Source: a virus
Taxonomy: Duplodnaviria > Heunggongvirae > Uroviricota > Caudoviricetes
Length of the DNA stretch: 64,000 nt
Virus record (IMG/VR): IMGVR_UViG_3300033146_005641
Coordinates: 119,352-183,351 of that record
Reading direction: 5' to 3' (one strand)
Shown here: one piece after another, positions 21,597-45,795 of the stretch
Layout: every line of letters begins with the position of its first letter
How positions within the stretch are numbered: position 1 is the first letter of the stretch
Position numbers and translations under genes: made by a program
Notes under the pieces: model-generated
The model's database searches: none
The model's input: only the letters and a program-made list of their open reading frames with translations
Told to the model about the DNA's origin: nothing

Positions 21597-22934
21597 ATGA
21601 AAATATCAAAATTTTTAAGTGAAGACTTGGCAGACTATGCGAGCTATTCTACATTAAGAATGATTGCTAGTTGTATAGATGGTCAAAAGAATTCGGGTCG
21701 TAAAGTTTTATTTACAATTTTTGATAAAAATATTAAAAAAGATAAAGAATCTAGAGTATCTCAATTAGCAGCAAAAGTATCTGAGCATGCGGAATATCTT
21801 CACGGTGAAGTTTCATTACAGGGTGTCATCTCGAATATGGCTGCGGACTATACAGGATCTAATAATGTAAATCTTTTAGAGCCTAAAGGTAACTTCGGAA
21901 CCAGATTCACACCAGAACCTTCGGCACCTAGGTATATTTACACCTTTGGTAATGAGTCTGCTTGGAATTTTTTTAATCAAGATGATAATGCTATTCTCCT
22001 CCATCAAAACTTTGAAGGTCATAATATTGAGCCTAGATTTTATCTACCTATTCTTCCTATTTTAGTTGTTAATGGTGCTGAAGGTATGGCTACAGGATTC
22101 GCTCAAAAAATATTACCAAGAGATCCTAAGAAGGTTAGAAAATATATCGAAGATTCTTTAAAAGGTACCCTAAGAGCTAATAAACATAACTCTCTTCATC
22201 CTCACTATGAAGGATTTAAAGGTACTATTATAGAAGGTGAAAGTTCTAATCAATTTGAAATTTGTGGTGTGATAGAACGTCTAACAAAAACAAAAATCAA
22301 AATTACTGAGATACCTATCGGATATTCTTTAAAGGGATATATTAAATATCTCGATAAATTGGAGGACGAAGGATTTATTCAAGATTATCAAGACCTTTCA
22401 GAAGATGATAATTTTGAATTTATACTAACCTTCAAAAAAGACATTTTAGAGAAATATGATGATGATAAACTTTTAGATAAACTTAAATTAATTAAGAGAA
22501 TCTCAGAAAATTACACTGCTATCGATGAGGAAAATAAAGTAAGGACTTTTAGTGGAGTCAAGGAAATTATAGATTATTATATAGATATTAAAAAAGAGTA
22601 TTTAGGATTAAGAAAAAGTCACCTAATTAGAAAGTTATCTAGGGATATTAGAGTATTAGTGTCTAAATATCTTTTTATTAAAGCTGTCGTTGAAGATGAA
22701 CTAAAAATTAATAAAAGAAAGAAAAAAGATATCGAAAAAGATTTAGAGCGTTTTGATAAAATAGTCAAAGTTGAAGATAAATATGACTATCTTTTAAATA
22801 TGAATATTATGTCACTTACTGAAGAAAGAATGCAAAAACTTTTAAACGATATTAAAGAGATGAAAAAAGAATTAGATAGGATTAAAGAAATTTCAATAGA
22901 AAATATGTGGCTAGAAGATCTAAAGGGTATTTAG
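21597..22934 (+). CDS. 52: DNA topoisomerase II medium subunit (T4 gp52 homolog; GyrA-like)
   Basis: NVNLLEPKGNFGTRFTPEPSAPRYIYTF versus T4 NFPLLDGQGNFGSRTVQKAAASRYIFAR; PRFYLPILPILVVNGAEGMATGFAQKILP versus PAFYLPIIPTVLLNGVSGIATGYATYILP. Start set to the ATG at 21597 (AGGAG RBS) rather than the TTG at 21570 in the ORF track. Confidence 0.85.
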   Translation: MKISKFLSEDLADYASYSTLRMIASCIDGQKNSGRKVLFTIFDKNIKKDKESRVSQLAAKVSEHAEYLHGEVSLQGVISNMAADYTGSNNVNLLEPKGNFGTRFTPEPSAPRYIYTFGNESAWNFFNQDDNAILLHQNFEGHNIEPRFYLPILPILVVNGAEGMATGFAQKILPRDPKKVRKYIEDSLKGTLRANKHNSLHPHYEGFKGTIIEGESSNQFEICGVIERLTKTKIKITEIPIGYSLKGYIKYLDKLEDEGFIQDYQDLSEDDNFEFILTFKKDILEKYDDDKLLDKLKLIKRISENYTAIDEENKVRTFSGVKEIIDYYIDIKKEYLGLRKSHLIRKLSRDIRVLVSKYLFIKAVVEDELKINKRKKKDIEKDLERFDKIVKVEDKYDYLLNMNIMSLTEERMQKLLNDIKEMKKELDRIKEISIENMWLEDLKGI

Positions 22935-23516: not shown

Positions 23517-23921
23517 ATGAGTATATTAGAAATCATAACACTAGGATATGCTGTAAATGTAGTAGCAATAATTATGGTCTTTTTATTAATCATCATACAG
23601 TCTTTTACTAAAATGAGTTTTTTAAATCATGTAGATAAGATGAAAGTTATTACGTATCAGCAATCTATTTGGAATAAATATTTATCAGCTAAAGAAAGAA
23701 TGAAAACCTTTAAGTTAAATTTTTTAGAGTCTAGAGATTTTAGTTTCTTATTTCCTTTTGCTTATATTTTAGAATTTTTAGTAGTCTTTTGGCACTTTTT
23801 AAAATTTGATTTAGATGTTTTTATTTTTGAAAGAATTAAAAGTAAGACACAAAGAATGGAAGATAAAATAACAAAATATAGTGATAATGAAGAAAAAAAT
23901 GATATTAATAACAGGCTCTAA
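23517..23921 (+). CDS. predicted membrane protein
   Basis: N-terminal hydrophobic segment ILEIITLGYAVNVVAIIMVFLLIIIQSF and a second one around FLFPFAYILEFLVVFW. Confidence 0.4.
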   Translation: MSILEIITLGYAVNVVAIIMVFLLIIIQSFTKMSFLNHVDKMKVITYQQSIWNKYLSAKERMKTFKLNFLESRDFSFLFPFAYILEFLVVFWHFLKFDLDVFIFERIKSKTQRMEDKITKYSDNEEKNDINNRL

Positions 23922-24516
23922 AGGCTTTATAGGAGGAAGATTAATTAAACTTCCTAATTTTATTTCTTATGAAAAATATATCGATAATCCTTCTAATTAT
24001 AAATTGTCTAAAATAGTTCATTTAGCTAGTGTTAGTGAAAGTAGGGAATTCTTAAATTTAAATAAAACCTCCACCGTTATGATAGATTTTACTATAGATA
24101 TAATAAACCTATCTAAGAATCTTGATATAGAGTTAATTTTTTCTTCTTCTATGGCTGTAGAATATTTAGGTGGAGAAAAAGATATTTATGGAGTATATAA
24201 AAAATTTGCCGAATATTACATTAAAAGTAATTTACCTAAATGGAAGATTTTAAGAATTCCTAGAATTTATGGTAAAGACAGAAAGAAAGGATTAATGAGA
24301 ACTTTAAGAGAGGGTACTTTTAAAGGAAATTTATCAGATGAGGTCGAATATGTGGACATAGATGTTTTTATTAATTTCTTTACCGATTATATTAATAACG
24401 GAAGATTAAACGTTATAGAATACGTTCCCGAAAGACTAAAAGAAAAAGATACTGTTTTAAATATTGGAAAAAAATATGAATGTTTACATATTGACTATAA
24501 TAATACTAACTCATAA
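23881..24516 (+). CDS. NAD-dependent epimerase/dehydratase-like protein, short
   Basis: N-terminal Rossmann signature ILITGSKGFIGGRLI (GxxGxxG). Only 211 aa. Confidence 0.5.
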   Translation: MIMKKKMILITGSKGFIGGRLIKLPNFISYEKYIDNPSNYKLSKIVHLASVSESREFLNLNKTSTVMIDFTIDIINLSKNLDIELIFSSSMAVEYLGGEKDIYGVYKKFAEYYIKSNLPKWKILRIPRIYGKDRKKGLMRTLREGTFKGNLSDEVEYVDIDVFINFFTDYINNGRLNVIEYVPERLKEKDTVLNIGKKYECLHIDYNNTNS

Positions 24517-25081
24517 TAGACCGAAAGGTTTTGAAAGACTAATGAACAGTATAAAATCATTCAATCTTTCTAATATTAAAATAATTATTAATTGTGATAA
24601 TGAATTTACATATCTATACGCTAAAAAAATTGTTAAAACATTAAATATAAAATCTACAATTTTTAATCACACAGAAGAAGTAAATGAATTATACAGGATT
24701 ATGTATGAAAAAACTAATACGAAATATGTATGGTTTTTGGAAGATGATGATGAGATTTTATATATTCCTGATATAGAGAAAATGGAAGAAGATCTGATAA
24801 TAGGTTTATATAAACCTATTAGGTTTGACAGATCTCATAAAATAATTAAAGATAACATAAAAATAGATGAAGATAATATTCCCGAATTTTTTCAATTATC
24901 TCAAATAATATTTAAAAGAAATAAACTAGGTTTAGAGGATTTCCCTAAAGAATACAATAATGAAAATGATGAAGTTATTTTAAAATCTATTTTAAAAAAT
25001 TCAAAAAATATTAAAAAAATCTCAAAATCTTTTTTTAAACAAGGAAGCTACGGAGATAATTTATCTCTAGAATATCTTTAA
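24464..25081 (+). CDS. family-2-type glycosyltransferase (GT-A fold)
   Basis: YILTIIILTHNRPKGFERLMNSIKSF resembles the GT2 N-terminus. DxD-type acidic motif FLEDDDEI. Confidence 0.6.
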   Translation: MEKNMNVYILTIIILTHNRPKGFERLMNSIKSFNLSNIKIIINCDNEFTYLYAKKIVKTLNIKSTIFNHTEEVNELYRIMYEKTNTKYVWFLEDDDEILYIPDIEKMEEDLIIGLYKPIRFDRSHKIIKDNIKIDEDNIPEFFQLSQIIFKRNKLGLEDFPKEYNNENDEVILKSILKNSKNIKKISKSFFKQGSYGDNLSLEYL

Positions 25082-25089
25082 GGAAGTCA

Positions 25090-25938
25090 ATGAAAATATC
25101 TCATGTAAACACAATTAAAAATTCTATAAATCTATTTGTAGATATTAATACTATTTGTAATTTAAATTGTCCTTATTGTTTTGCTAGAAAAGAAAAGGAG
25201 TGGAATAAAGAAATAGAAATCGGGAAAGTAAAATTTATTTCTCAATCTTTAAAGTTTAGTAAATATTCTTTCAATATAATTTTATTTGGAGGAGAACCTC
25301 TTCTCCATCCAAAAATTAAAAATATAGTAAATATATTTAATAATAATCCTAAAGTTAATAAAACTATAATATTAACTAATGGCACTTTAAAAGGCGTACC
25401 ATATGATTTAGATTCAGAATATGTATTTACTCTTCATGAATTATCTGAAAAAGAATTCAATAATTTTATGAAGAATATAGCTAAACCTGAGAAGAGTATA
25501 GTTAATTTTGTAATTAAACAAGACAAAACTTCTATTGAGCGATATAGGAAAATATTAAAAATGAAAGATGTTCTCTTAGATATAGAACACTCTCAAATAT
25601 ATGATGATAATATATACATTATAGAAGACTTAAGTCATTTAAATTTCCTAGAACTTCGCAAAGAATTTGTAATTGATAATAAAACCTTTAATTATAGAGA
25701 TTTTTTAAAATTTCATAAGACTTTAAATCCTAAAGAATTTATTTGTGAGATACAAGAGTTAAATATAGATTTAGAAGGAAACATATCTAACGATTGTTCA
25801 GGAATAAGGGATAATATTTACGATAATCCTCTTTTTTTTAAAAAATATGTTAAAGAATATGAATGTTTAAGAAATAGATGTTTAGAATGTACAGGAACTA
25901 TTAGAACTACTAAAATATCAAAGGAACTTAATGAATGA
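25090..25938 (+). CDS. radical SAM enzyme with C-terminal SPASM/twitch-like Cys cluster
   Basis: CNLNCPYCFA (CxxxCxxC), GGEPLL, C-terminal CLRNRCLECTG. Confidence 0.75.
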   Translation: MKISHVNTIKNSINLFVDINTICNLNCPYCFARKEKEWNKEIEIGKVKFISQSLKFSKYSFNIILFGGEPLLHPKIKNIVNIFNNNPKVNKTIILTNGTLKGVPYDLDSEYVFTLHELSEKEFNNFMKNIAKPEKSIVNFVIKQDKTSIERYRKILKMKDVLLDIEHSQIYDDNIYIIEDLSHLNFLELRKEFVIDNKTFNYRDFLKFHKTLNPKEFICEIQELNIDLEGNISNDCSGIRDNIYDNPLFFKKYVKEYECLRNRCLECTGTIRTTKISKELNE

Positions 25939-26962
25939 ATTCAATAAATTAAAAAAGGTTATTATAGGTTCAGAGCTACAAACCTCACTAAACATGTTGG
26001 AAAATAATATATTAAATGAATTAAAATCTTTTAATTATTTTTTTAAATCAGATTTTGATAAAAACGATATTAGAGAACTAATCAATAATATGAATATTAA
26101 GATTAAAGATAGACAAAATTCTATTTCTAACTTCATTAAAACTATAAAAAAAGAAAAAATAGATGTATATAATATAGAAGATTCTGATCTCTACGTTAGT
26201 TCTAATCCTAGAGATATTTTTTCTATTTTAGATGATGTAGTTTTAGTTACTAATTCATTATTAAAATATAGACGAAGAGAATTTGATGTATATATTAAAA
26301 ATTTTCCTGAATTATTCAGGGATAAAAAAATTCTGGATTTAAGAGAAATTTTTAAGAAATATGAAATTTTAGAATACGATTATACTCACTATAATCTTTT
26401 AAGTTTAAATAAATTATCTAAAAACTATGAGAAATATAGACCAAATTTTGAAGCTGCAAATATTTTAAAATGTGGAGATAAAATAATAATGAACGTGAGT
26501 AATAAGAGCGAATATCATGCCTATATTTTGTTAGAAAAATTATTAGGAGTAGAAATAACTCCAATTTTTATAGACTATCATCATATAGACGGAGCTCTTA
26601 ATATTATTAATAATGAAATATGTTTATTATGTTTTGACTCTAATATAGTTTCTAAAAACTCTATTTTAAATCATCTTCCTGAGTTTATAAAAAATATGGA
26701 TATTATTTTTGTAGATAAAAATCCTAAATCTCATGAAAAAATTAAATATAAGGTGTTGGCTAGTATTGGCGGAATGTTTATTAATTCTCTTAGTATTGAT
26801 GAGAATACGGTCATAGTAAATAAAGAGGCATTGTATGTTATAGATGAGTTAGAGAGAAGAGGCATTAAAGTTTTAAAATTAAATTCTAAAAATTCTGAAC
26901 TTTTTGGTGGAGGATTTCATTGTATGAGTGTAGATGTAGAAAGATATAAAGATGGAAAATAG
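25931..26962 (+). CDS. amidinotransferase-fold enzyme (guanidino-group-modifying enzyme superfamily)
   Basis: The C-terminal SELFGGGFHCMSVDVER matches the catalytic-Cys signature GGGFHCxT of L-arginine:glycine and inosamine-phosphate amidinotransferases (recalled: GGGFHCWTCDVRR). HH and acidic motifs upstream (DYHHIDGALN). Confidence 0.65.
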   Translation: MNEFNKLKKVIIGSELQTSLNMLENNILNELKSFNYFFKSDFDKNDIRELINNMNIKIKDRQNSISNFIKTIKKEKIDVYNIEDSDLYVSSNPRDIFSILDDVVLVTNSLLKYRRREFDVYIKNFPELFRDKKILDLREIFKKYEILEYDYTHYNLLSLNKLSKNYEKYRPNFEAANILKCGDKIIMNVSNKSEYHAYILLEKLLGVEITPIFIDYHHIDGALNIINNEICLLCFDSNIVSKNSILNHLPEFIKNMDIIFVDKNPKSHEKIKYKVLASIGGMFINSLSIDENTVIVNKEALYVIDELERRGIKVLKLNSKNSELFGGGFHCMSVDVERYKDGK

Positions 26963-27752
26963 ATTTCAGTTTAATTTTTATATTAATACTATGTGTAATC
27001 AGAAATGTTCCTATTGTTATGCTAGAGCAGGCATGAAATGGAATACTATTTCTCCGTATGAAGAAATAATAAAAAACATCAATCTATTAATAAATAGACC
27101 TAAATGTATAATAAGTTTGATAGGTGGAGAGCCTACGCTTCATCCTAAATTTGAAAATATTTTAAGAAGCATAAAGGATCTTAATCATAACCTTCATATA
27201 TATACTAACGGAACCTCGTCTTTTTTTAATAATTTAAATTATGATTTATATAGAAAGTTCTTATGGACGTTTAGCTATCACGGAAAGTTTACGAATAACG
27301 AGGAGTTTAAGAGAAATATTTTAAAATTTATAAACAATAATATTAATATAGAATTGACGGTTCCAGCACAAAACTTTAATAAGGATATTTTAAGATTTAT
27401 TCAATATAATAAAATAAAGACAGTTATAACTTTTATACACGATAATTCTAAAACTCAATCTAAAGAAAATATAAAAAAATGGGTTTTAGAATTAGAAGAT
27501 GATAATATAAAAAATATGTCTAAATATTTTTATGAAGATGCCTACTATAAAGGATATACTTGTTATTACAATGAGATAGATGTTATAAATTCGAAAATGA
27601 GGACTAATGATTGTAATCATAATTTGAATCTTTTTATAGATGATAAAAATTTAGATTATATATTTTCTCTACCCTTAACGGTATGTAAAAGAGAGAAATG
27701 TAAAAGAGATTGTGCTTTTTTACTACCTAGGAAGCAAAATGATATTTTCTAA
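26952..27752 (+). CDS. radical SAM enzyme with SPASM-like C-terminus
   Basis: CNQKCSYCYA, GGEPTL, C-terminal CKREKCKRDCAF. Confidence 0.75.
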   Translation: MENRFQFNFYINTMCNQKCSYCYARAGMKWNTISPYEEIIKNINLLINRPKCIISLIGGEPTLHPKFENILRSIKDLNHNLHIYTNGTSSFFNNLNYDLYRKFLWTFSYHGKFTNNEEFKRNILKFINNNINIELTVPAQNFNKDILRFIQYNKIKTVITFIHDNSKTQSKENIKKWVLELEDDNIKNMSKYFYEDAYYKGYTCYYNEIDVINSKMRTNDCNHNLNLFIDDKNLDYIFSLPLTVCKREKCKRDCAFLLPRKQNDIF

Positions 27753-28626
27753 TAAAAACTCTATTAAAAATCACGATTTTTTTATTTTTGAATTGTTGAT
27801 CATAGAATTATGTAATTTTAAATGCAGTTATTGTTATATGAGAAATGAATCTCCTACATGGGGTAGCTTTAGTACGAAGAAAGAAATATTTAAAGTGATT
27901 AAAAAGCTAGAAGAATTAAATAATAAAGTCTCAATATGTTTGAGTGGAGGTGAAGCTAGTCTTCATCCTAATTTTTTAGAGTTTGTAGACTATATTACAA
28001 ATAGTGAGAAGATACATAGTCTTCATATTAATACTAATCTACAATTATCTGAAGAAAAAATAGAAAAGATACTAAAAATAGATTCAGACGTAAAATTTCA
28101 TATATCTTTTCATGCAGGACAATCCGATAAAGATTTTAAAATAAAATTAAAGAAAATTCCAAAAAAGAATCAGGAATTAAATATCATGATACACCCAGCA
28201 AAAAAATATAAAAAAGATATAGATGATATTGTGAAATTTTGTGATACTAATAATATATTATATAATATAAAGCCTATATTTATCAATAGTAAATTTAAAC
28301 CATCACAATACGTTATTGAGTCTATGAATTATAAAAACTCTAATAAAGAATATACTGATGGTAATAGAGATTATAATGATTATGATTTGTATAAAGAGGG
28401 TTTATTACCTATGAATACTCTCGGATGGGAGTGTTATTATATATTTTATACTATAGATTGCAAACAGGGAAATATTAAACAGATGTGTAGACTATATGAT
28501 GATTTAAATATTTTTAAAAATTTTGATTTTTTTAATAATTATGATTTATCTAAACCTATAATATGTTCTTTTAAGAATTCTTGTTTATGGGCTAGTTCGT
28601 TAGATCACTATAAGGTAAAAAAATGA
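27739..28626 (+). CDS. radical SAM enzyme
   Basis: CNFKCSYCYM, SGGEASL, C-terminal CSFKNSCLWAS. Start moved to the ATG at 27739 (AGGAAGCAAAATG) from the GTG at 27712 in the ORF track. Confidence 0.7.
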   Translation: MIFSNKNSIKNHDFFIFELLIIELCNFKCSYCYMRNESPTWGSFSTKKEIFKVIKKLEELNNKVSICLSGGEASLHPNFLEFVDYITNSEKIHSLHINTNLQLSEEKIEKILKIDSDVKFHISFHAGQSDKDFKIKLKKIPKKNQELNIMIHPAKKYKKDIDDIVKFCDTNNILYNIKPIFINSKFKPSQYVIESMNYKNSNKEYTDGNRDYNDYDLYKEGLLPMNTLGWECYYIFYTIDCKQGNIKQMCRLYDDLNIFKNFDFFNNYDLSKPIICSFKNSCLWASSLDHYKVKK

Positions 28627-29615
28627 GTCTAAGTGTTGAAAATATATCTCCGTACAGAGAGTATAAACTAATAGATCCTATAAAATCTATGGTTGGGATA
28701 ATGTTACATCCTGTATGTAATATGAAATGTTCTTACTGTTATCAGAAAGATATAATGAGCGTGTCTCAAAAGCAAAAAGATATATATTTAAGCTTTGTAG
28801 AAAAAGCATCAGAGTTTATAAATTTTCTATCTATTAATGGAGAAGACGGAATAGTTGTTTCTATAGAAGGAGGTGAGCCCTTTGTTATGATTGAAGTTTT
28901 AGAAAAGTTTTTAGAAAAATTATCTAATAATAATAAAGATCAAAACACATACCATAAAGAAATAATTATAGTTACTAATATGACTCAATTAGATAGTATG
29001 ATTTATATTTTAGATAAATTTAAAAATTTAAATATAACTCTCAACCCTAGTATTCACTATCATGAAATAGATAAAAAACAATTATATGATACTATTTCTA
29101 ATATATTAAAATTAAAAAAATATATTAAATATGTTAGGGCTATTTTAAAATTAGGCACCGATAGTGTACCTAAAACTCTCAGACCCCTATTAAGAATTCT
29201 AGAAGATAATAATATAGAAGTAGATATAGCCTCTATAATGTTTACTGGTCAAAAAAACGAACTGAATAAGCTATTTAAACTTCCCTCTTTAGAAAAAATG
29301 TCTATAAAAAATCAATTTAAAAATGGTATCTATAATAGTAACGAATTTTTTAATCCTTTAAACACGACTTTAGGTATAAAATGTACATCCTATTGCTGGT
29401 TTATATATTCTAATGGAGATGTAATAATGCACGAATGTAAAAACAGAGGAAAACCGAAAAATATATATACAGACCCTTTCGAAAATATACAAAACATGCC
29501 TAATACAGTAATATGCGGTAGTATGAATTGTGATCAATGTGATTTTTATGATAAATGGGATTCTTGGGAGCAGTGGGGTTGTGAATGGAATCCTAATGAG
29601 GACTATAATAAATGA
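28623..29615 (+). CDS. radical SAM enzyme with SPASM-like C-terminus
   Basis: CNMKCSYCYQ, EGGEPFV, C-terminal CGSMNCDQCDFYD. Confidence 0.75.
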   Translation: MSLSVENISPYREYKLIDPIKSMVGIMLHPVCNMKCSYCYQKDIMSVSQKQKDIYLSFVEKASEFINFLSINGEDGIVVSIEGGEPFVMIEVLEKFLEKLSNNNKDQNTYHKEIIIVTNMTQLDSMIYILDKFKNLNITLNPSIHYHEIDKKQLYDTISNILKLKKYIKYVRAILKLGTDSVPKTLRPLLRILEDNNIEVDIASIMFTGQKNELNKLFKLPSLEKMSIKNQFKNGIYNSNEFFNPLNTTLGIKCTSYCWFIYSNGDVIMHECKNRGKPKNIYTDPFENIQNMPNTVICGSMNCDQCDFYDKWDSWEQWGCEWNPNEDYNK

Positions 29616-30547
29616 TTATAATTTTTCCAATAGAGAACATGCCTAATATAACTTCTCAGTTAGTTGTAGCTATCGAATCTATAATAGACAACTTTAAAAA
29701 TACTAAATACGAGATCATAGTAGTAAATCATAACCACTCTAAACTACCTAAAACTATTTTAAAATATATAGAGTCTAAGAAAGAGGTTAGAATAATACAT
29801 AAAAAATTAACGAATAATAAGTTTTATTATAAGACCGAGAGTCATTTTATGGTAATGCCTGAGGTATTTAATTATGTAGTCGATCATTTTAGAGATGAGA
29901 GTTATTTGTTTTTAGATCCTGATGTGTATGTTAATAAAGACCTACCTCCTATAAATGAAAATGAAACATATGTTTTCAAACAACCTTTAAATTTTGGAGG
30001 CGAGGCTCTAAATTATTGGAATTGTAAAATATTAAATGAAATATATCCTCATCACTATGATACCTTCTTTATATATACTTCTGATAAAGACTTCGCCAAA
30101 AAATGGTTAGGAGAAAGCACTAGAATAGCTAAGATGGGTATTAATCATAAAGATAGAGTAGTAGGAAACAGACTTCAGCATTTTTGCGAAGAGTGTTCTA
30201 TACAAACTCTAATTAATAAAGGATATTCAATAAAAGATGCTAAAGAATTCTTCTTAGCTAATGCATATCTTAACAAAGAAATACAATGGAAAGGGTATAG
30301 TGTTTATCATTATGATTATTCTAAAATCCTAAATATGATGGATATAAATCCTAAATATAAAACTCTATATAGAGTTGTTGGAGGAAGATTAGACGAGGAA
30401 TCTGAAAAGAATTTGACTTTTGATGATAAACTATTAGAATTAGTAAAAAGAGAAATAGATAATTATTTAGAGAAAAATATTAAGCCGTCATTAAAAGAAA
30501 CTCTTTTTATAATGAGATTTGGAAAAGATTATGACTTCTCTGACTAA
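29612..30547 (+). CDS. hypothetical protein, possibly GT-A-like transferase
   Basis: 311 aa. FLDPDVYV acidic motif. No firm family recognised. Confidence 0.35.
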   Translation: MIIIFPIENMPNITSQLVVAIESIIDNFKNTKYEIIVVNHNHSKLPKTILKYIESKKEVRIIHKKLTNNKFYYKTESHFMVMPEVFNYVVDHFRDESYLFLDPDVYVNKDLPPINENETYVFKQPLNFGGEALNYWNCKILNEIYPHHYDTFFIYTSDKDFAKKWLGESTRIAKMGINHKDRVVGNRLQHFCEECSIQTLINKGYSIKDAKEFFLANAYLNKEIQWKGYSVYHYDYSKILNMMDINPKYKTLYRVVGGRLDEESEKNLTFDDKLLELVKREIDNYLEKNIKPSLKETLFIMRFGKDYDFSD

Positions 30548-31244
30548 AAAATCAAAACTAAGAAAAAAAATTATAGAATATAGTATAGAAAATAACCTAG
30601 GACATATTCCTAGTGCATTAAGTATGTTTAATTACTTGTTTTATTTAATCGGAGAGATAGATTTAAGGAAAGCTAATGTAATTATAGGAAAACCTTTCGG
30701 TTCTCAATCTTACTATTTGTTATGGAACTATTTTTATAGTCTAGATATAGATAATTTAAGCTACGGTGTAAAACATGATGAGATATCTTTTATAGATTAT
30801 TCAGAAGAAACTCTAGGAAATGCTTTAGGAGTTGCTGCAGGATATGCTATATCGTCAAATAGAATGACATGGTGTAATATTTCTGATGGAGCTCTTCAAA
30901 TGGGGTCCACCCTAGAAGCTATTCAATTTATAGGAAACAGAAAGTTAAATATTCTACTAACTATAGATTATAATGAAACTCAACTAACAGGAAGGATTGA
31001 AGAAATAATAGGTATGAACGTGAATAATATTTCAGAGTATTTTAAAAGTTTTGGGTGGGATTCTCAAATTATAGATTCTAAAAATATAAGAGAGGGTTTT
31101 TTTAAAAGAATTGCGGAAAACGAAGGTCCTAAAGTAGTTTTTATAAGAACTACGAAGGGTGATGGTATAGAAGAAATGGAGAAGAATCCTAGAGAATGGC
31201 ACTATAAAAAATTAAAGGATATCAATGAGGTTACATTTAAGTAA
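30519..31244 (+). CDS. transketolase N-terminal (TPP-binding) subunit, compact
   Basis: GHIPSALSMFNYLFY (GHxxSxLS) and DGALQMGSTLEAIQFIGNRKLNILLTIDYNETQLTG (GDG...N TPP-binding region). Confidence 0.65.
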   Translation: MEKIMTSLTKKSKLRKKIIEYSIENNLGHIPSALSMFNYLFYLIGEIDLRKANVIIGKPFGSQSYYLLWNYFYSLDIDNLSYGVKHDEISFIDYSEETLGNALGVAAGYAISSNRMTWCNISDGALQMGSTLEAIQFIGNRKLNILLTIDYNETQLTGRIEEIIGMNVNNISEYFKSFGWDSQIIDSKNIREGFFKRIAENEGPKVVFIRTTKGDGIEEMEKNPREWHYKKLKDINEVTFK

Positions 31245-31689
31245 AACTATAGAAAATTGTTATTTTATACACTCTGATATGTGGAACGTAAAAAATTTTC
31301 CTTTTAAAGGTTCTGTAAAGGTTATAAATTGTGGATTAGGAGAAAGTAACTCTCTAAATGTCGCAGGAGGAATAGCTAGAAACAGTAATGATGTTTTTGT
31401 TTATGGTGTAGCAGGGTTTATAATACATAGACTAGAGCAACTAAAATTTAGCTGCAAACATTTTGGAGCTGAAAGAGGAAAAATAATATTAGTAAATGCT
31501 GGGAAAGTAGGATACGAATCTTTCGGTATAGGTCATAGACTAGATGATGATGAAGAAATATGTAATATATTAGGAATAAAATTCTTTGATCCTGAAGATA
31601 TAGATGATTTTGATAATATACTAAAATTTATTAAAAAAGAAAAAAGAGGTATATATTATATAAGATTAGGAAAAGATTATGAAAAATAA
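31225..31689 (+). CDS. transketolase C-terminal (pyrimidine-binding) section, compact
   Basis: Overlaps the N-terminal subunit by 20 nt. GESNSLNVAGGIARNSNDVFVYGVAGFI resembles the transketolase Pyr domain. Only 154 aa. Confidence 0.5.
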   Translation: MRLHLSKTIENCYFIHSDMWNVKNFPFKGSVKVINCGLGESNSLNVAGGIARNSNDVFVYGVAGFIIHRLEQLKFSCKHFGAERGKIILVNAGKVGYESFGIGHRLDDDEEICNILGIKFFDPEDIDDFDNILKFIKKEKRGIYYIRLGKDYEK

Positions 31690-32293
31690 TGATGAATTTT
31701 TAGAAATTTTTGAAAAGAGACTTTCAGAATTTACTGGAGCCCCTTATGTGGTGCTTACTGATAGGTGTACTAATGCTATATTGTTATCTTTAATAGCTAC
31801 AGATGTTAAAGAAGTAAGAATTCCTAATAATACATATTTAAGCGTACCTATGACTTTAATAAACTATGGAATAGATGTTTTTTTTGAAAATTATTATTGG
31901 GAAGAAGAATATTTATTATCGGGTAGTAGAGTGTTTGATTCCGCAGTAGGATTTAAAGAAAATATGTATAATCATCATCAGGACTCCATTCAATGTGTTA
32001 GTTTTCAACAGAAAAAAAGATTAAATATTGGAAGAGGAGGTGCTATATTATTAGATGATTATGAATTGTACTTAAAGCTCCAGAGAATGGTTCACGACGG
32101 AAGAAGAAGAGGAATATCTTCTAAACTTGAAGTAGAGAATTTTCCTGATGATATTATGTTAGGCTATCATATGAATATGATTCCTGATGAGGCTGCTAGA
32201 GGCATATTAATATTAAATCAATTAACAGAATATAAAAAACAATCATATAAAAATTATCCAGATATAAGCAAATTAAAATGCTTTAAGAAATAA
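31679..32293 (+). CDS. DegT/DnrJ/EryC1-like PLP-dependent sugar aminotransferase or dehydratase, compact
   Basis: FEKRLSEFTGAPYVVLTDRCTNAILLSL (compare FEeeFAeylGvkhavavsSGTaALhLAL) and SFQQKKRLNIGRGGAIL (compare SFHatKnittGEGGai, the PLP-Lys region). Only 204 aa versus ~370 typical. Confidence 0.5.
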   Translation: MKNNDEFLEIFEKRLSEFTGAPYVVLTDRCTNAILLSLIATDVKEVRIPNNTYLSVPMTLINYGIDVFFENYYWEEEYLLSGSRVFDSAVGFKENMYNHHQDSIQCVSFQQKKRLNIGRGGAILLDDYELYLKLQRMVHDGRRRGISSKLEVENFPDDIMLGYHMNMIPDEAARGILILNQLTEYKKQSYKNYPDISKLKCFKK

Positions 32294-32334
32294 TTTATAA
32301 AATTATTATATAATAAGGTATAAAAAGGAAATAG

Positions 32335-32982
32335 ATGTCTAGAATAATGATAATTGTATCACATATTGATGACGAAATCTTTTCGATGGGTGGAACTATT
32401 CATAAACTTTCAAAAAACAATGAAATTGAAATTCTATTTGTTTGTGAGGGGTCTCCAAAACTTATGTCTATAAAAAATTTTATTAAAAGAAAAAAAGTCA
32501 CTAAAAAATATAAAAAACATAATATAGAATTTTTAAACCTGGAGTACGAAGATACTACTTTAGACATTTTTTCATTATCTGAAATTATAAAAAGAATTCA
32601 ATATGTATATGATGAATTTAGTCCTGACATAGTTTTTACCCACTCTGAAGATATACATCCTGATCATTGTATAGTTTCTAAAGTGGTGTCGATAATCACT
32701 CGTCCTAAAAATAACAGTATCAAGAAACTATATCATTTTTCTATTCCTGGTAATAATGAATGGAACGGATATAGTTTTAAACCTAATACTTATGTTGAGT
32801 TGGGAGAAGATGATATAAAATTCAAACATAAATTTATAAACTATTATAATAATATTTTAGGGTATAAAAATCCACACCCTCTAAGTTCAGAAAAGATAAA
32901 AGCTAAAGATGAATACACGGGAAGTATAATTAATACGGAATATGCAGAAGCGTTTGAATTAAAATTTGATAGGAGCTTATAA
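32335..32982 (+). CDS. LmbE/PIG-L family N-acetylglucosaminyl deacetylase
   Basis: MIIVSHIDDEIFSMGGTIHKL (the [AH]HPDDE zinc motif region) and HPDH later. Confidence 0.65.
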   Translation: MSRIMIIVSHIDDEIFSMGGTIHKLSKNNEIEILFVCEGSPKLMSIKNFIKRKKVTKKYKKHNIEFLNLEYEDTTLDIFSLSEIIKRIQYVYDEFSPDIVFTHSEDIHPDHCIVSKVVSIITRPKNNSIKKLYHFSIPGNNEWNGYSFKPNTYVELGEDDIKFKHKFINYYNNILGYKNPHPLSSEKIKAKDEYTGSIINTEYAEAFELKFDRSL

Positions 32983-33846
32983 TTGAATATATGTATTACT
33001 GGAGGAGAGGGTTTTATAGGTAAGGCTCTCAAAAAACAATTAGAAAAAAATCATAAAGTTTTTACGGTAGATATTAAAGGTGAGCCTAGTATTAGGTTTG
33101 ATTTATCTGAAGATAAAGAGAATTTTTCTACTCATCTTATACATTTATTAAAACACTGCGATGTATTATATCATTTCGCTTCGAGTATCGGCGTAGAATA
33201 TATAGAGAAGGATAAAGATTCCTTTAAAAATTCTATTAAGATAAATGAAAATATACTAGAATTTATTAATCCTGAAGCAAAAATTATCTTTGCTAGTACT
33301 TCAGAGGTTTATGGTTCTGCTTATCACGAGTTTGATGAGAGAGATGATTTAAAGATATTAAGTCCTACTAAAGGAATTAGAGGATCTTATGCAACGCAAA
33401 AAATTCTTGGTGAATTTATGTTTATGAATTCAGGAAATCCATATACTATTGTTAGGTTTTTTAACGTAATTGGAAAAGATCAAAATCCCGATATTGGAAT
33501 GGTATATCCTAGATTCTTAAAAGCTGCTAAGGAGAATAAACCTTTAGAAGTATTCGGAACAGGCAATGAGATGAGATCATATTGTAGTATTAAAGATGCT
33601 GTAAATGTTTTAGAACTTTTATTAAATGAGATGGATAATGAAATTTTAAATATAGGTGCGGAAAATGTCTATAGTACGGCTTCTTTAACTAGAACTATCA
33701 TAGATGTAACTAATAGTTCTTCCGTTATAGTTTATAAAGATTCTAGATGTCAAGAGATTAAATCCAGAAGACCTAAGCTAGATAAAATGTATTCTATATA
33801 TAGGCCTAAATATTCATTAACAGATATTATCAAGGAAGAACATTGA
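32983..33846 (+). CDS. NAD-dependent epimerase/dehydratase (extended SDR), apparent TTG start
   Basis: ICITGGEGFIGKAL Rossmann motif. Catalytic YxxxK as SYATQKILGE. ASTSEVYG resembles the conserved S-x-x-VYG. Confidence 0.7.
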   Translation: MNICITGGEGFIGKALKKQLEKNHKVFTVDIKGEPSIRFDLSEDKENFSTHLIHLLKHCDVLYHFASSIGVEYIEKDKDSFKNSIKINENILEFINPEAKIIFASTSEVYGSAYHEFDERDDLKILSPTKGIRGSYATQKILGEFMFMNSGNPYTIVRFFNVIGKDQNPDIGMVYPRFLKAAKENKPLEVFGTGNEMRSYCSIKDAVNVLELLLNEMDNEILNIGAENVYSTASLTRTIIDVTNSSSVIVYKDSRCQEIKSRRPKLDKMYSIYRPKYSLTDIIKEEH

Positions 33847-34400
33847 AAAAAGTTATAGAAATACATGAGGTGAATTTAGACATTATTAAAAAAATTATTA
33901 AATTAGATTTAAAAAATTGTGTGTTAACGTTTGATGATGGGTTAGCATCCCAATGGCATTTTATAAATGATTTAATAGCTTTAGATGTACCTAAAATATT
34001 TTTTATTAGTACAGATATTATATGTACCAGAATCGATAATCAATCTAAAGAATTTATAACGTGTTCAGAAGCACATAAAAAGGCCTTTAAGGGCAATAAA
34101 GAAAATTATATGACATGGGGTCAAATAAAAACAATATCTAAACTACCTAATTGCTATATTGGAGGACATTCTCATAAACATCAGGCGTACTCTGTAACGC
34201 CTCTAAAAGATTTATACATCAGTCTATCAGACGATTCTGAAAATATGTTAGAGGAGTTTAAAAATAAAAATATTAAAATAGATAAATTTTGTTTTCCCTA
34301 CAATGAAGACTATGACGGAATATATAGAATCCTTTTATCTAAATTAGGTATAGAGAAGTTTTACGGTAAAGGAAGAATTAGTATAGAAGATATAGAATGA
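33843..34400 (+). CDS. polysaccharide deacetylase (NodB-homology) domain protein, apparent TTG start
   Basis: CVLTFDDG motif 1, later GGHSHKH (His-rich metal motif). Confidence 0.55.
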   Translation: MKKVIEIHEVNLDIIKKIIKLDLKNCVLTFDDGLASQWHFINDLIALDVPKIFFISTDIICTRIDNQSKEFITCSEAHKKAFKGNKENYMTWGQIKTISKLPNCYIGGHSHKHQAYSVTPLKDLYISLSDDSENMLEEFKNKNIKIDKFCFPYNEDYDGIYRILLSKLGIEKFYGKGRISIEDIE

Positions 34401-34523
34401 AAAAAGAATTATTATATTTAATAATATTTACAAGGATTAGAACAATGTGCAGAAAACCTGATGATAAAATCACTAGAATTATATGAGTAAAATATATATA
34501 ACGACTATTAGAAGAGGAAGAAA

Positions 34524-35261
34524 ATGATAGGAATTGTAGGATTAGGATATGTAGGAAGTGCCGTTTATTCATCTATTAGAAGTAAAGATGATGTTTTAAT
34601 TTATGACGTAAAAGACGATATTAAAACTCACTCTTTAGTAGAACTAAAAAATAATTGTAAAGCAATTTTTGTATGTGTACCAACACCCTCTAAAGACTCA
34701 GGAGAGATTGAGGATAGTATAGTTTTAAATTTATTAGGAGAATTAAAAGATTATGCTAAGAATAATTTAGTTATTCTAAAGAGTACTATTCTATCGAATA
34801 GAATCCCTCGTATTAGAGGTCTTGTTTATAATCCTGAATTTCTTAACGAAAGAACACATATAGAAGATTTTAGGAATCAGGATTATATAGTTCTAGGAGG
34901 TAATATACAAGATACATCTAGAGCTCAAATGATATATGAGGATTATTTTGAATTAGACGATGTTAAATATGAACACTGTTCTATAGAAGAAGCTAGCTTT
35001 TTAAAATATTTTAATAATATATATGGTGCTTATAAAATATTATTCTGGGAGTTTGTACACGATATTACAAGAGATTCTAGAAAGATTAGTCAAATGATGA
35101 GAAATCTTCCAGAACCTAGAATGGATATTGTAGGTTTAGATGGACAGAGAGGATTCGGAGGAGCATGTTTTCCAAAAGATGTAAAAGCTTTTAATTATGA
35201 TTTTGAACATGTTCTAACTAAGTTTATGTTAGAGTACAACTCAAAAATCTCCTCTATTTAG
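34524..35261 (+). CDS. UDP-glucose/GDP-mannose dehydrogenase-family protein, compact
   Basis: IGIVGLGYVGSAV NAD-binding N-terminus, IFVCVPTPS (ICVPTP motif), and catalytic-Cys signature GGACFPKD (compare GGSCFPKD). 245 aa versus ~400 typical. Confidence 0.65.
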   Translation: MIGIVGLGYVGSAVYSSIRSKDDVLIYDVKDDIKTHSLVELKNNCKAIFVCVPTPSKDSGEIEDSIVLNLLGELKDYAKNNLVILKSTILSNRIPRIRGLVYNPEFLNERTHIEDFRNQDYIVLGGNIQDTSRAQMIYEDYFELDDVKYEHCSIEEASFLKYFNNIYGAYKILFWEFVHDITRDSRKISQMMRNLPEPRMDIVGLDGQRGFGGACFPKDVKAFNYDFEHVLTKFMLEYNSKISSI

Positions 35262-37148
35262 TCTATCTATATAGTTCATCTTATCATCCCAATCATTAGA
35301 ATTTCTTATAGCTTCTATGAGGGATGATTTATCATAATAACTATCTTCGCTACCATCATCAAATCCACCAGTACCCTCTAACATAGAATAAAAATCTTCT
35401 ACAGTTACGCCCTCTTCATCATCTTCTAAATCTAATCTCAAAGATCTTAAAAATAAACTTAAATCATCATAAGCTTTTAGATGTAAAAAAGGAGCAAAAG
35501 ATATAGCTAAAGCCATTACCATATCGTCATGATATCCCTCATCTGCTTCAAATTTTTTACCCGATTTATTAATAAAATTATAAAATTCTTTTATGGTATC
35601 TTCATCATTAATAATTAACTTATTTTCTTCTATGAATACTCTCATCATGTTTATAATTGAGGGACGAGATTTAGTAGTAGTTCTAAAGCCCGGATATTTC
35701 TTGTATTTTTTATCTTGAGGATCTCTGTCTCTATATAAATTTTCGTATTCATATTCTCCATACATCATATCGGCTATTGATTGACCCGCTCCTTCATTAT
35801 TTTCTATAATCATAAAAGCTTCATTATAATAATTACCTAATTCATTTAGACTTTCAGGCATCATTAAATAATCTACGTCTAACTTTGCTGACGCTGCTTG
35901 AACAAATGGAAATTTAGTAATATTAATAACTTGAATAGCAAAAGAATCTAATCCGTCTTTTGCAGGATCGACAGCAACTATATAGTGATTTTTTGGTTTT
36001 GGTTCTTCATAAATTTTAATACCGTTTAATACAGTATTTTCTTTAATAGGATTTTTAGCTTCTAATCTTTTTAACGTATCTGAACTTAATAGGGTATCAG
36101 CAGACCCTAAAAATTCATTTTCTTCAGTTTGAGCAAAGAATTTTTCTCCAAATCTTTTAATAGTAATTTCTTTATATTTATCCGGATCTAGAGGATTTCC
36201 TTTTTTATCATAGTGAGGAACCTCCTCCCAGTTATTAGATATTAGTCTATAACCATTATTACCATTTCTAGCACCATCTACAATTTGCTTCCAGTGATTC
36301 ATACCATTAGCAGTACTCGTTAATATAGTTTGTTTAAAGGCTAGTGAGTTCATGGTCGGAAAGATAGAATCTGTAAATTCTTCCCAGTCGTTAAGAGGAA
36401 TATAGGCTGCCTCATCCACATACACAACATTAACAGTAAATCCACGAAAAGCATCGCCCGAAGGTACATCTGTTAATACTCTATTCCTAGATTCAGATTC
36501 TATTTGAGTCTTATTCCATACTTCGATATTAGGCGTCATCCAAATTGGAAGCTCTAATAAAATCTTCTTAAGCTTACCTATAACTTCTTTTGATCCTGAT
36601 GCTTTATTAGCAACAATACCTATCGTAGTAGGGTTATCTCTAAAAGCAAATAACCATAAAAGGTATGTAGAAGTGGAAATGGTTTTTCCAGATTGACGCG
36701 AAAACAGAATAACTAGATCTTCACCATCTTTTAAAGCCTCTTCAAGATCTTTTTGATAGCTTCTTGATTCGGGTCTAGCTAGACCCTCCTTAGTCATAAT
36801 AAAACAGTAATTATATCTAAAATATAAGAAATCTTTCTCACATTTTTCATATTCTATTTTATGGAGAGGTGTCATCTTCATTTCGGTTTTAGGTTTCTTT
36901 AAGGACCTATTTCCATTATATGAAACTGCTCTTCCATATTTATCAACATAATAACCCACTTCGTTTTTAGGAGAGTCTAAAAGATTAAGAAGGCCATCGT
37001 GTTCTTCGTGAGTAAAGGTATAGGTAGATTTTAGAAATTTTTGAAATTTTTCATCTTCGGATAAAATTTCTTGAAGATCTAGGAGAGCCTCTTTATCTTC
37101 TATTTTAGAAAGTTTAGTTAATAATTTTTTATATTTTTTAACATTCAT
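35241..37148 (-). CDS. 17: terminase large subunit (T4 gp17 homolog)
   Basis: Walker A SRQSGKT (T4: SRQLGKT), Walker B YVDEAAYI, nuclease-domain acidic motifs VAVDPAKDGLD. Confidence 0.9.
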   Translation of the reverse strand: MNVKKYKKLLTKLSKIEDKEALLDLQEILSEDEKFQKFLKSTYTFTHEEHDGLLNLLDSPKNEVGYYVDKYGRAVSYNGNRSLKKPKTEMKMTPLHKIEYEKCEKDFLYFRYNYCFIMTKEGLARPESRSYQKDLEEALKDGEDLVILFSRQSGKTISTSTYLLWLFAFRDNPTTIGIVANKASGSKEVIGKLKKILLELPIWMTPNIEVWNKTQIESESRNRVLTDVPSGDAFRGFTVNVVYVDEAAYIPLNDWEEFTDSIFPTMNSLAFKQTILTSTANGMNHWKQIVDGARNGNNGYRLISNNWEEVPHYDKKGNPLDPDKYKEITIKRFGEKFFAQTEENEFLGSADTLLSSDTLKRLEAKNPIKENTVLNGIKIYEEPKPKNHYIVAVDPAKDGLDSFAIQVINITKFPFVQAASAKLDVDYLMMPESLNELGNYYNEAFMIIENNEGAGQSIADMMYGEYEYENLYRDRDPQDKKYKKYPGFRTTTKSRPSIINMMRVFIEENKLIINDEDTIKEFYNFINKSGKKFEADEGYHDDMVMALAISFAPFLHLKAYDDLSLFLRSLRLDLEDDEEGVTVEDFYSMLEGTGGFDDGSEDSYYDKSSLIEAIRNSNDWDDKMNYIDRLNRGDF

Positions 37149-43013: not shown

Positions 43014-43016
43014 AAA

Positions 43017-45791: not shown

Positions 45792-45795
45792 AAAT

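Follow-up and report, generated by a model that had tools for sequence, protein, structure and literature searches.

Results

An island of soluble enzymes in a T4-like replication region

Positions 23881-35261 of a 64,000-nucleotide stretch of the uncultured tailed-phage record IMGVR_UViG_3300033146_005641 (Caudoviricetes; positions 119,352 to 183,351 of that record), hereafter the window, form one contiguous block of 11.4 kb in which 15 tightly packed open reading frames (ORFs) follow one another on the + strand (Table 1). This island lies among T4-type packaging and replication genes. The + strand replication genes of the window encode a helicase, a gp32-type single-stranded DNA-binding protein, an exonuclease and two topoisomerase II subunits, and the topoisomerase genes (18961-20778 and 21570-22934) form one flank of the island; the convergent large terminase gene forms the other. 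Neighbouring island genes mostly overlap or abut, the gaps being 8, 41 and 123 nt, and the overlaps that join most of them are translationally coupled. A hydropathy scan found no transmembrane segment or signal-like N-terminus in any of the 15 proteins, all of which are soluble, and neither Pfam nor hydropathy pointed to a flippase, polymerase or lipid-carrier gene within the block. Taken as a whole, the island encodes soluble enzymes for the editing of nucleotide sugars, the transfer of amidino and glycosyl groups and radical tailoring, a set that is conserved and phage-resident.

The initial annotation had described a co-oriented island of sugar and tailoring enzymes without T4 counterpart inside a T4-like replication region, and the ORF listing and Pfam bear this out; every sequence motif that it quoted is present in the translations. 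Its count of 16 genes is reached only by including a 134-aa membrane ORF immediately upstream, which has no Pfam match and no orthologue in related loci, and whose membership in the system is doubtful. The four radical S-adenosylmethionine (rSAM) enzymes that it had placed consecutively are split 1+3 by the amidinotransferase.

Table 1. Coordinates of the island, its flanks and the associated core in the window. aa, amino acids; TATAAATA, T4 late-promoter octamer; SDR, short-chain dehydrogenase/reductase; GT2 and GT-A, glycosyltransferase classes; ThDP, thiamine diphosphate; PLP, pyridoxal phosphate.
Feature	Position	Strand	Length	Sequence characteristics
S74 intramolecular-chaperone remainder, free-standing	6716-7039	+	107 aa	Pfam Peptidase_S74
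Three conserved proteins	7032-9193	+	189 aa; paralogues 267 aa and 272 aa	invariant D..R...E in the paralogues; in ~20 loci
Most conserved rSAM of the system, HxsC/MoaA-like	11874-12875	+	333 aa	TATAAATA upstream at 11851
Membrane ORF	23517-23921	+	134 aa	strongly hydrophobic N-terminal segment (maximum KD19 2.83); overlaps first island gene from upstream
Short SDR	23881-24516 (likely start ATG 23899)	+	~205 aa	TGSKGFIGG Rossmann motif and YxxxK; C-terminal substrate domain reduced
Soluble GT2 (GT-A) glycosyltransferase	24464-25081	+	205 aa	Pfam PF00535
rSAM1	25090-25938	+	282 aa	CX3CX2C at residues 23-30; invariant C-terminal Cys 219, 236, 259, 264, 267
Amidinotransferase, pentein fold	25931-26962	+	343 aa	StrB1/AGAT/HsvA/SxtG family
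rSAM2	26952-27752	+	266 aa	invariant C-terminal Cys 204, 221, 245, 250, 254
rSAM3	27712-28626 (real start probably internal)	+	304 aa	4 conserved C-terminal Cys
rSAM4	28623-29615	+	330 aa	C-terminal Cys 254, 272, 298, 303, 306 kept in its one orthologue
311-aa protein	29612-30547	+	311 aa	invariant FLDPDVY (DxD-like) motif
ThDP-binding (PP) subunit, split transketolase-like enzyme	30519-31244	+	241 aa	Pfam Transketolase_N
Pyrimidine-binding (Pyr) subunit, split transketolase-like enzyme	31225-31689	+	154 aa	GLGE glutamate invariant
Compact DegT-like PLP enzyme	31679-32293	+	204 aa (family norm ~370 aa)	Pfam PF01041, E 7e-16
LmbE/PIG-L de-N-acetylase	32335-32982	+	215 aa	Pfam PF02585, E 5e-17; HIDDE and HPDH zinc motifs
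Extended SDR	32983-33846	+	287 aa	Pfam Epimerase, E 5e-31; GGEGFIG, STSEVYG, YATQK
NodB-family polysaccharide deacetylase	33843-34400	+	185 aa	Pfam PF01522; TFDDG and HSHKH metal motifs
Compact NDP-sugar 6-dehydrogenase-like protein	34524-35261	+	245 aa	Pfam PF03721 and PF00984 only
Large terminase	35241-37148	-		convergent with island, other flank
Tail-fibre-like protein	42363-43013	+	216 aa	PHROG tail fibre match, E 3e-10; TATAAATA upstream at 42331
rSAM peptide-maturase-type genes and small ORFs	43519-47606 (43519-44649, 44685-45791, 46758-47606)	+		first two: canonical 7-Cys SPASM
Fibre-like Cys-rich protein	47985-48551	+	188 aa	C-terminus CFCNCNYCACNCNFCTCNCNFSCPCNCH then YSDERLKTNILYL; own TATAAATA at 47913
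TATAAATA sites	4310, 6676, 11851, 37153, 38226, 38230, 38675, 41905, 42331, 47913, 54168, 56617, 58955			

Sugar, transferase and amidino enzymes

Pfam domains at or above gathering score comprise GT2, Radical_SAM (in all four rSAMs), ADI/pentein (C-terminal part only), Transketolase_N, DegT, PIG-L, Epimerase, Polysacc_deac_1 and the N-terminal and central domains of UDPG_MGDP_dh. Together with profile searches these matches uphold nearly all of the family calls first proposed, the 311-aa protein being left without a family and the short SDR with a weak one (RmlD_sub_bind, E 0.008). Orthologues of the short SDR occur in related loci (labelled here by L numbers) at 34-36% identity (L009, L011) and 25% (L003), where they adjoin transketolase subunits; those in L009 and L011 match Pfam Epimerase.

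The amidinotransferase is the best-defined of these enzymes: a profile built from 13 relatives matches StrB1 (PDB 1bwd) over its full length with an E value of 1.3e-71, followed by HsvA, AGAT and SxtG, and arginine deiminases and DDAH gave marginal matches only. His218, Asp220, His330 and Cys331 are invariant, leaving the His-Asp...His-Cys catalytic set intact, and the proposed StrB1 type therefore stands. No cellular relative exceeds ~33% identity, or 27% when the full length is considered, and the highest-ranking cellular matches probably come from mis-binned viral contigs. When the single sequence was used to scan IMG/VR, no relative was found.

The DegT-like enzyme, also as first called, keeps the PLP lysine (SFQQKK) and the preceding Asp in the alignment with PDB sequences, and orthologues of ~200 aa occur in L012, L098, L100 and L107 (51-54% identity). 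Compact DegT genes stand beside amidinotransferase genes in unrelated contexts too (L036, L066), and by gene association the two enzymes make a probable couple converting an amine to a guanidine. The transketolase assignment is firmer for one subunit than for the other. In PP, GHIPSALS and the SDG...N Mg-ThDP motif (D123...N152) are invariant, and in profile searches PP is matched to 6yak, a split-chain transketolase N-component (E 6e-17); the Pyr copy of the window scores E 0.28 against Transket_pyr, which is not significant in Pfam, and that domain is matched by three of four Pyr orthologues (best E 2.8e-5). Pyr adjoins PP or sits one gene off wherever both are found. The transketolase C-terminal domain PF02780 is absent from the island.

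The LmbE and NodB calls hold, the metal-binding motifs of both predicted deacetylases being intact. The LmbE protein has a BshB2-like NCBIfam match below cut-off and orthologues in L011, L012 and Campylobacter phage CP220 (gp157); the NodB deacetylase lacks a signal peptide and a hydrophobic N-terminus. The 287-aa SDR is of the predicted NDP-sugar epimerase, dehydratase or decarboxylase type, its best PDB matches being 8vr2, UDP-glucuronate decarboxylases, a GlcA epimerase-like entry and the ArnA C-terminal domain. The best solved structures for this SDR (8vr2) and for the DegT-like enzyme (8vr3, 8vr5) follow one another in PDB numbering and may come from a single pathway under study; no literature on entries 8VR2 and 8VR3 was found.

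The 245-aa dehydrogenase-like protein keeps the catalytic Cys motif GGACFPKD and aligns to GDP-mannose and UDP-glucose dehydrogenases of the PDB. It lacks the C-terminal nucleotide-sugar-binding domain, and with it the three-domain architecture of those enzymes. In eight related loci (L096-L105, for example L098:4713-5440) a homologue of this protein stands directly upstream of SPASM maturase genes, apart from the sugar genes. Since these homologues are also without the nucleotide-sugar domain, the protein may not be an ordinary UDP-sugar dehydrogenase.

The GT2 family shows invariant TH(N/K)R, NxD and LEDDD (DxD) motifs, its profile matches PglI, TarS/TarP and GalT1 in the PDB, and in related loci the gene is directly upstream of the rSAM1 orthologue wherever the latter is clearly recognisable. 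The 311-aa protein has no Pfam, NCBIfam, PHROG or PDB match, and two homologues were found among 5.8 billion proteins searched; tblastn located orthologues at the conserved position in L012 (48%) and L104 (34%). Around the DxD motif it shows a weak, local resemblance to GT-A-like CP220 proteins, gp088 among them (E 5e-4), and it is possibly a GT-A-type transferase. Its AF2 model is unusable (pLDDT 47), and a profile-profile comparison with the GT2 family was not significant (probability 2%).

Radical SAM enzymes of the island

The island rSAMs had been labelled SPASM enzymes. They carry 4-5 conserved C-terminal Cys residues, do not fit the canonical seven-Cys motif (CX9-15GX4C...CX2CX5CX3C...C), and none of the four matches Pfam SPASM, so the label does not hold. 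Orthologue alignments give the C-terminal pattern C-x16-C...C-x4-C-x2/3-C. CX3CX2C begins at residues 15-34 (the motif lies within 15-41), which leaves no room for a peptide-recognition domain. Sequence matches in NCBIfam and the PDB are confined to the N-terminal core and fall far under every curated cut-off. By fold, rSAM1 scores highest against BlsE (15.6), followed by SkfB (14.3), MoaA (13.8), anSME (13.6), BtrN (13.2, the highest identity at 20%), viperin (13.1) and QueE (9.9); SpeY is among the matches. From the fold scores, the C-terminal Cys pattern and the missing peptide-recognition domain, we place the four enzymes as predicted twitch-like members of the SPASM/twitch clade: each combines a CX3CX2C core with a short C-terminal domain whose conserved Cys residues are predicted to bind a cluster. 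Their size and architecture resemble those of enzymes acting on sugars or nucleosides, and the scores are compatible with peptide substrates too.

Identity with QueE, MoaA or viperin, the first two of which had been named as the outcome that would undo the assignment, is rejected by the low-scoring core matches and, for QueE, by the low fold score as well. Orthologues of rSAM2 occur in L003, L007, L009 and L012 (47-54% identity), of rSAM3 in L007 (64%), L012 (56%) and L104 (49%), and of rSAM4 in L012 at a conserved position (29%).

Conservation of gene order in related phages

None of 50,697 phage records was matched when the island was searched by megablast. Exact-sequence look-ups of window proteins also found no record, although the protein collection searched does contain them. 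Look-ups of amidinotransferase and 311-aa homologues led to metagenomic phage contigs that carry the same genes in the same order, and an IMG/VR scan with the conserved 267/272-aa family (Table 1) added 18 loci. In all, ~20 uncultured viral contigs are colinear (GC 22-41%, protein identity 25-60%), and the suggested synteny comparison thus shows the island order to be conserved; the opposite case, an island missing from all relatives, did not arise. The + strand order begins with a fibre-like gene, often a dehydrogenase-like gene, two SPASM maturases, the Cys-rich protein, the 189-aa protein, the 267-aa and 272-aa pair and the conserved rSAM; it continues with GT2, rSAM1, sometimes the amidinotransferase, rSAM2, rSAM3, the 311-aa protein, rSAM4 and DegT, and ends with, sometimes, transketolase PP, Pyr and the short SDR, then the SDR, LmbE, the polysaccharide deacetylase and the dehydrogenase-like gene. 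In L104, 18 of these genes stand in one contiguous run. The order has an invariant core in its first half and a variable second half; in the present phage and its close relatives L094 (94%) and L095 (74%) the system is split into blocks.

Because same-order orthologues recur in many independent contigs, the island is not a chance assembly. It is nevertheless conceivable that it serves no single pathway and consists of auxiliary genes, each useful by itself, that have piled up in a plastic region, with decay under way in some of the truncated ones. Relatives do differ in content, with the amidinotransferase, transketolase, DegT and deacetylases coming and going; many island enzymes are much shorter than their families (DegT at 204 aa, the dehydrogenase at 245 aa, the transketolase without its C-terminal domain); and Vibrio phage phiKT1024, the nearest cultured relative by terminase, is without the module. 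We regard accretion as very unlikely: order and orientation persist even between very divergent contigs, no family examined shows a change in its catalytic residues, the compact lengths are themselves conserved between phages (~200 aa for DegT, 245 aa for the dehydrogenase), and most of the genes are translationally coupled.

Recent capture from a host capsule locus was considered and rejected, the best cellular amidinotransferases being as distant as stated above and none of them from Campylobacterota. Since the GC content at third codon positions of the island equals that of the remaining genome and no close cellular homologue exists, the system appears to be an old phage-resident one. A strict co-occurrence of amidinotransferase and transketolase, seen in the first five loci, failed in the larger locus set.

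A fibre and SPASM core associated with the island

When all window ORFs were compared, the genes at 6716-9193, 11874-12875 and 42363-48551 proved to be orthologues of genes that are contiguous with island genes in other contigs. The tail-fibre-like gene corresponds to the first gene of the super-cluster in relatives. Pfam SPASM is matched by gene 43519, and the NCBIfam SPASM domain by genes 43519 and 44685. Genes 43519, 44685 and 46758 match PapB nearly over their full length, below the NCBIfam cut-offs; for the first two, SCIFF, CXXX-repeat and anSME maturases give near full-length, sub-threshold matches as well. With the four island enzymes, these three and the conserved rSAM at 11874-12875, the window holds at least eight rSAMs in 64 kb. 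The conserved rSAM shows 40-59% identity in distant loci and 46% to CP220 gp163, and is directly upstream of GT2 in most related loci that have GT2.

The last residues of the Cys-rich protein, YSDERLKTNILYL, are the opening strand of an S74 chaperone; domains of this family fold trimeric fibres of phages, from which they afterwards release themselves by self-cleavage. In ~19 related loci a protein of 160-430 aa carries a similar C-terminal motif, mostly DCxCNSDCxCNxxCxCxxxCGCNY, which is either fused to a complete S74 domain starting SD(E)RLKxNI or stands at the point where the protein stops; some phages break the S74 domain behind this strand (SDERLKTNILYL) and encode the remainder in an ORF of its own. 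Examples are 47985-48551 with 6716-7039 of the window, L003:3100-3885, L007:2314-3304 and L104:7718-8550. An orthologue of the 107-aa S74 ORF directly follows the Cys-rich fibre gene in L007 and L104, and in the window it sits 41 kb away; this placement in a distant, separate ORF implies chaperone action in trans. Because the Cys/Asn-rich stretch directly precedes a self-cleaving chaperone, it would form the mature C-terminal tip of the fibre after S74 cleavage. The association resembles that of peptides made by the ribosome and modified after translation (RiPPs), with a Cys-rich sequence encoded beside SPASM maturases that would putatively cross-link it. A short RiPP precursor peptide was not found within the island or just upstream of it.

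The 267/272-aa pair at 7582-8385 and 8375-9193, present in every related locus, has invariant Asp, Arg and Glu residues (FDxxxRFxxEC). The family also occurs in CP220 (gp077) and at L001:989-1813. It has no NCBIfam match and no PDB match even at E 10, and all three conserved proteins (189, 267 and 272 aa) are without Pfam or PDB matches. The pair probably represents a family of enzymes, not described before, that belongs to this system.

Late-promoter motifs

Copies of the T4 late-promoter octamer TATAAATA are strongly depleted: the window has 13, against an expectation of 31 (100 of 100 shuffles had at least 13). Gene starts follow closely downstream of at least nine copies, and this pattern suggests that the phage uses late transcription of the T4 type. 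Three genes, those for the fibre-like protein, the Cys-rich protein and the conserved rSAM, have a copy 16-65 nt upstream, which marks this core as late and structural. A scan for sigma-70-like promoters and terminators was uninformative in such AT-rich DNA (GC ~0.25-0.33 in the window), giving 138 against 132 expected.

Relationship to Campylobacter group II phages

Tblastn of the concatenated island proteins against phage records returned mainly Campylobacter group II phages, where the amidinotransferase and an adjacent rSAM (~27%) and an epimerase-LmbE-deacetylase triad (~37%) are matched. CP220 and CPt10 (Firehammervirus) are T4-like as well and have several co-oriented rSAMs around a pentein amidinotransferase and GT-A-type genes; the CP220 order is rSAM, rSAM, hypothetical, rSAM, rSAM, hypothetical, amidinotransferase, rSAM, two GT-A-like genes and a PAP2 phosphatase. 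Identities to CP220 are 26% for the amidinotransferase (gp086, E 2e-21), 34% for the SDR (gp158), 25% for LmbE, 42% for the polysaccharide deacetylase (gp156), 46% for the conserved rSAM and 26-31% for the 267/272-aa family. The terminase is 41-43% identical to those of Campylobacter phages (41-42%) and of phiKT1024, and another protein is shared with the Campylobacter phages at 44%. Unlike the present block, the CP220 genes form two loci ~70 kb apart, and the split transketolase, compact DegT, short SDR and 311-aa protein are additions found here. The individual rSAMs are not one-to-one orthologues, rSAM1-4 matching weakly.

The CP220/CPt10 module was described as interchangeable, with five rSAMs and a glycine amidinotransferase, of unassigned role and probably non-essential (Timms et al. 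2010, PMC2853527). In phage IBB_35, deacetylases and a UDP-glucose dehydrogenase were noted and capsule degradation was guessed (PMC3322345); in a cyanomyovirus, similar sets of amidinotransferase, rSAM and DegT were called 'antibiotic synthesis genes' (PMC12801897); and rSAM cassettes were noted in pelagimyophage hypervariable regions (PMC7029224). By homology and gene content, the island is a distant, expanded homologue of the CP220/CPt10 module joined with the epimerase-LmbE-deacetylase triad. It is thus a more complete and contiguous form of a described phage module, and what is new is the tie to the fibre/SPASM core: an association with a Cys-rich S74 fibre and SPASM maturases was not found in the literature searched.

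Discussion

We favour, tentatively, a reading in which the island would serve a virion fibre maturation system as its cytoplasmic arm, building and tailoring the sugar with which a phage-made fibre protein is decorated. A virion protein, specifically the Cys-rich fibre, is our hypothesis for the acceptor, since colinearity with structural and SPASM genes is conserved and no membrane or export function accompanies the enzymes. Among the roles listed in the initial annotation, modification of virion proteins accordingly gains support from synteny, and modification of DNA or remodelling of the host surface gains none. A precedent for the phage-encoded part exists in mycobacteriophages, whose virions are glycosylated by phage-encoded glycosyltransferases; the resemblance would lie in phage-encoded sugar enzymes and a likely protein acceptor.

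A possible route can be outlined from the enzyme families. Oxidation of a UDP-hexose or UDP-HexNAc, possibly with chain extension by the ThDP enzyme, would come first. The DegT-like enzyme would then transaminate the sugar, and the amidinotransferase, taking arginine as donor, would turn the new amine into a guanidino group in the manner of StsC and StrB1 in the streptomycin pathway. The twitch-like rSAMs might perform redox, epimerisation or decarboxylation chemistry on the sugar, by comparison with BtrN and BlsE. The product would be transferred by GT2, perhaps also by the 311-aa DxD protein, most plausibly to the Cys-rich fibre that the SPASM enzymes would cross-link, and the deacetylases would unmask amines of the attached sugar.

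A bolder proposal, which we consider doubtful, is that the phages of this clade mature the receptor-binding fibre tip by natural-product chemistry of two kinds. The SPASM rSAMs would cross-link the Cys/Asn-rich C-terminal motif exposed after S74 self-cleavage, and the island would make and attach an unusual amino- or guanidino-sugar tailored by the twitch rSAMs. If true, swappable tailoring genes would yield a chemically diversifiable adhesin and a post-translational route to host-range variation, and the rSAM gene load of Campylobacter group II phages would be explained. These phages are biocontrol candidates, and their rSAM, amidinotransferase and sugar genes have been a puzzle since 2010; the window shows the module in a distant uncultured relative and in its most complete contiguous form. 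Should the link to the fibre hold, enzymatic post-translational tailoring of adhesins would join the known ways in which phages vary host recognition. The island would also make a collection of very compact sugar and radical enzymes available for study.

The comparison with SPASM RiPP systems such as PapB, SCIFF and the CXXX-repeat peptides goes only part of the way. Canonical 7-Cys maturases beside a Cys-rich sequence are common to both, but the putative substrate here is a fibre-like protein of 160-300 aa that has an S74 chaperone, in place of a short leader-core peptide, and there is no evident RiPP recognition element.

Several observations weigh against fibre decoration. T4-like hypervariable regions gather fibre genes and metabolic cassettes side by side, so that linkage does not equal function (PMC7029224). 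In the window the island lies 7 kb and a strand switch away from the fibre/SPASM block, and the Cys-rich/S74 protein was not seen in the two CP220 stretches inspected, although CP220 has homologous modules. The severe truncation of some enzymes (a dehydrogenase without its nucleotide-sugar domain, a half-length DegT) makes their activity uncertain. Finally, the island reads on from the replication genes, and no TATAAATA occurs on the + strand between 12 and 37 kb, hence none at the island, which fits an early or middle rather than a late expression.

Early or middle expression is also what might be expected of enzymes making a small molecule, that is, a free guanidino-sugar, an aminoglycoside-like compound or a sugar-nucleoside metabolite acting on the host, rival phages or neighbouring cells. 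All of the enzymes are soluble, related phage cassettes hold a carbamoyltransferase, FAD halogenase, AMP-ligase, B12-rSAM and 2-oxoglutarate (2OG) oxygenase, and the parts list overlaps with known pathways: with streptomycin and butirosin logic in the amidinotransferase, DegT, LmbE and twitch rSAMs, and with blasticidin logic in UDP-GlcA supply, a BlsE-like rSAM and DegT. The resemblance to the streptomycin and butirosin enzymes (StrB1, StsC/BtrR, BtrD, BtrN) is genuine for the StrB1-family amidinotransferase, with a plausible amine-to-guanidine logic, and extends at family level to the predicted LmbE (BtrD type) and DegT proteins. Pfam and NCBIfam, however, found among the 15 proteins no 2-deoxy-scyllo-inosose or inositol-phosphate synthase, kinase/phosphatase or GT-B glycosyltransferase, and the ThDP enzyme, the NodB deacetylase, the set of four rSAMs and the phage setting belong to the island only. 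The aminoglycoside- or aminocyclitol-like character first suggested therefore survives as a likeness of parts; a strict aminoglycoside pathway is unsupported, because no cyclitol-forming enzyme is present. The likeness to blasticidin S biosynthesis (BlsE, BlsH) is limited in the same way, with 15% identity to BlsE, no match of the island rSAMs to the NCBIfam BlsE model, and neither cytosylglucuronate synthase, CMP hydrolase, aminomutase nor ligase in the island. More generally, Pfam and NCBIfam revealed no scaffold-forming enzyme in the island (cyclitol synthase, nucleobase-releasing hydrolase, nonribosomal peptide synthetase or polyketide synthase), an exporter and a self-resistance gene are absent, and a diffusible product would leave the conserved colinearity with structural fibre genes unexplained. 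We therefore judge a small-molecule pathway unlikely.

Remodelling of the host surface seems to us quite unlikely. In this case the precursors of capsule, lipooligosaccharide or flagellar glycan would be altered, for instance by de-N-acetylation or amidination, against superinfection or adsorption to debris. LmbE, NodB, GT2 and nucleotide-sugar enzymes are typical envelope-glycan families, and early expression would suit superinfection exclusion. A capsule-directed role was proposed for the homologous deacetylases of IBB_35 (PMC3322345), and O-chain modification for glycosyltransferases of pelagimyophages (PMC7029224). The Arn pathway, which modifies lipid A with L-Ara4N, combines an NDP-sugar dehydrogenase, a UXS/ArnA-like SDR, DegT, GT2 and NodB. 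Unlike Arn, the island is without a formyltransferase, undecaprenyl-linked steps and the membrane proteins ArnT, ArnE and ArnF, and its rSAMs, amidinotransferase and transketolase have no Arn counterpart. Its proteins show none of the signal peptides, transmembrane segments, lipid-carrier transferases, flippases or polymerases that envelope work would call for, no close cellular homologues exist and none lie in Campylobacterota capsule loci, and 4-8 rSAMs together with an amidinotransferase would be unexpected for simple receptor masking.

The weakest of the functional alternatives is DNA hypermodification, in which a sugar or amino-sugar adduct on a phage base would serve restriction evasion. 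The island does lie in the replication region, co-oriented with topoisomerase II and without a late promoter, and glycosyltransferases, PLP enzymes and rSAMs do occur in pathways of phage DNA hypermodification (PMC5889632, PMC8989533). Yet no hydroxymethylase, base-exchange enzyme (DpdA/TGT), kinase or nucleotide-binding partner was found among the ORFs scanned in the 64-kb window of this 183-kb genome, and CP220, with homologous modules, reportedly carries a non-glycosylated 7-amido-7-deazaguanine that comes from a separate pathway. We consider this role very unlikely.

Other observations

More distant amidinotransferase cassettes occur in large marine phage-like contigs, L004-L006 (Tara Oceans) and L066, and at L003:18508-19764. 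They carry B12-radical SAM enzymes, 2OG-Fe(II) oxygenases, a carbamoyltransferase, an FAD halogenase and an AMP-ligase, as well as CDGSH proteins and NifU/IscA-type Fe-S assembly genes. Judged by their gene content, they appear to represent a broader class of natural-product-like cassettes in phages.

Elsewhere in the window, five paralogous repeat proteins (10176-10802, 50291-50980, 51034-51912, 51962-53029 and ~62573-63391) consist of 7-15 tandem 21-residue units (LTSLEGAPEVVdGnFyCynNq) with one Cys per unit, resembling leucine-rich repeats, between conserved N-termini (MRFRDTKYGDLTGQTYEG) and C-termini (DFSKLEVNDYLKSKFPYHFI). Relatives are found in Vibrio phages SRILMA, TDDLMA and phiKT1024 and in megaphages, and the five may be adhesins. 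A nucleotidyltransferase of the CCA-adding or poly(A) polymerase type (9180-10061, - strand), an RlaP-family nucleotidyltransferase (10855-11862) and a T4 Rnl1-type RNA ligase (56753-57862) make up a tRNA/RNA repair set, though the window has no tRNA genes. A 500-aa protein (40055-41557, - strand), common only to Campylobacter group II phages (44%) and a few Vibrio phages and annotated in CP220 with a weak nucleotidylyltransferase signature, marks the clade of the present phage.

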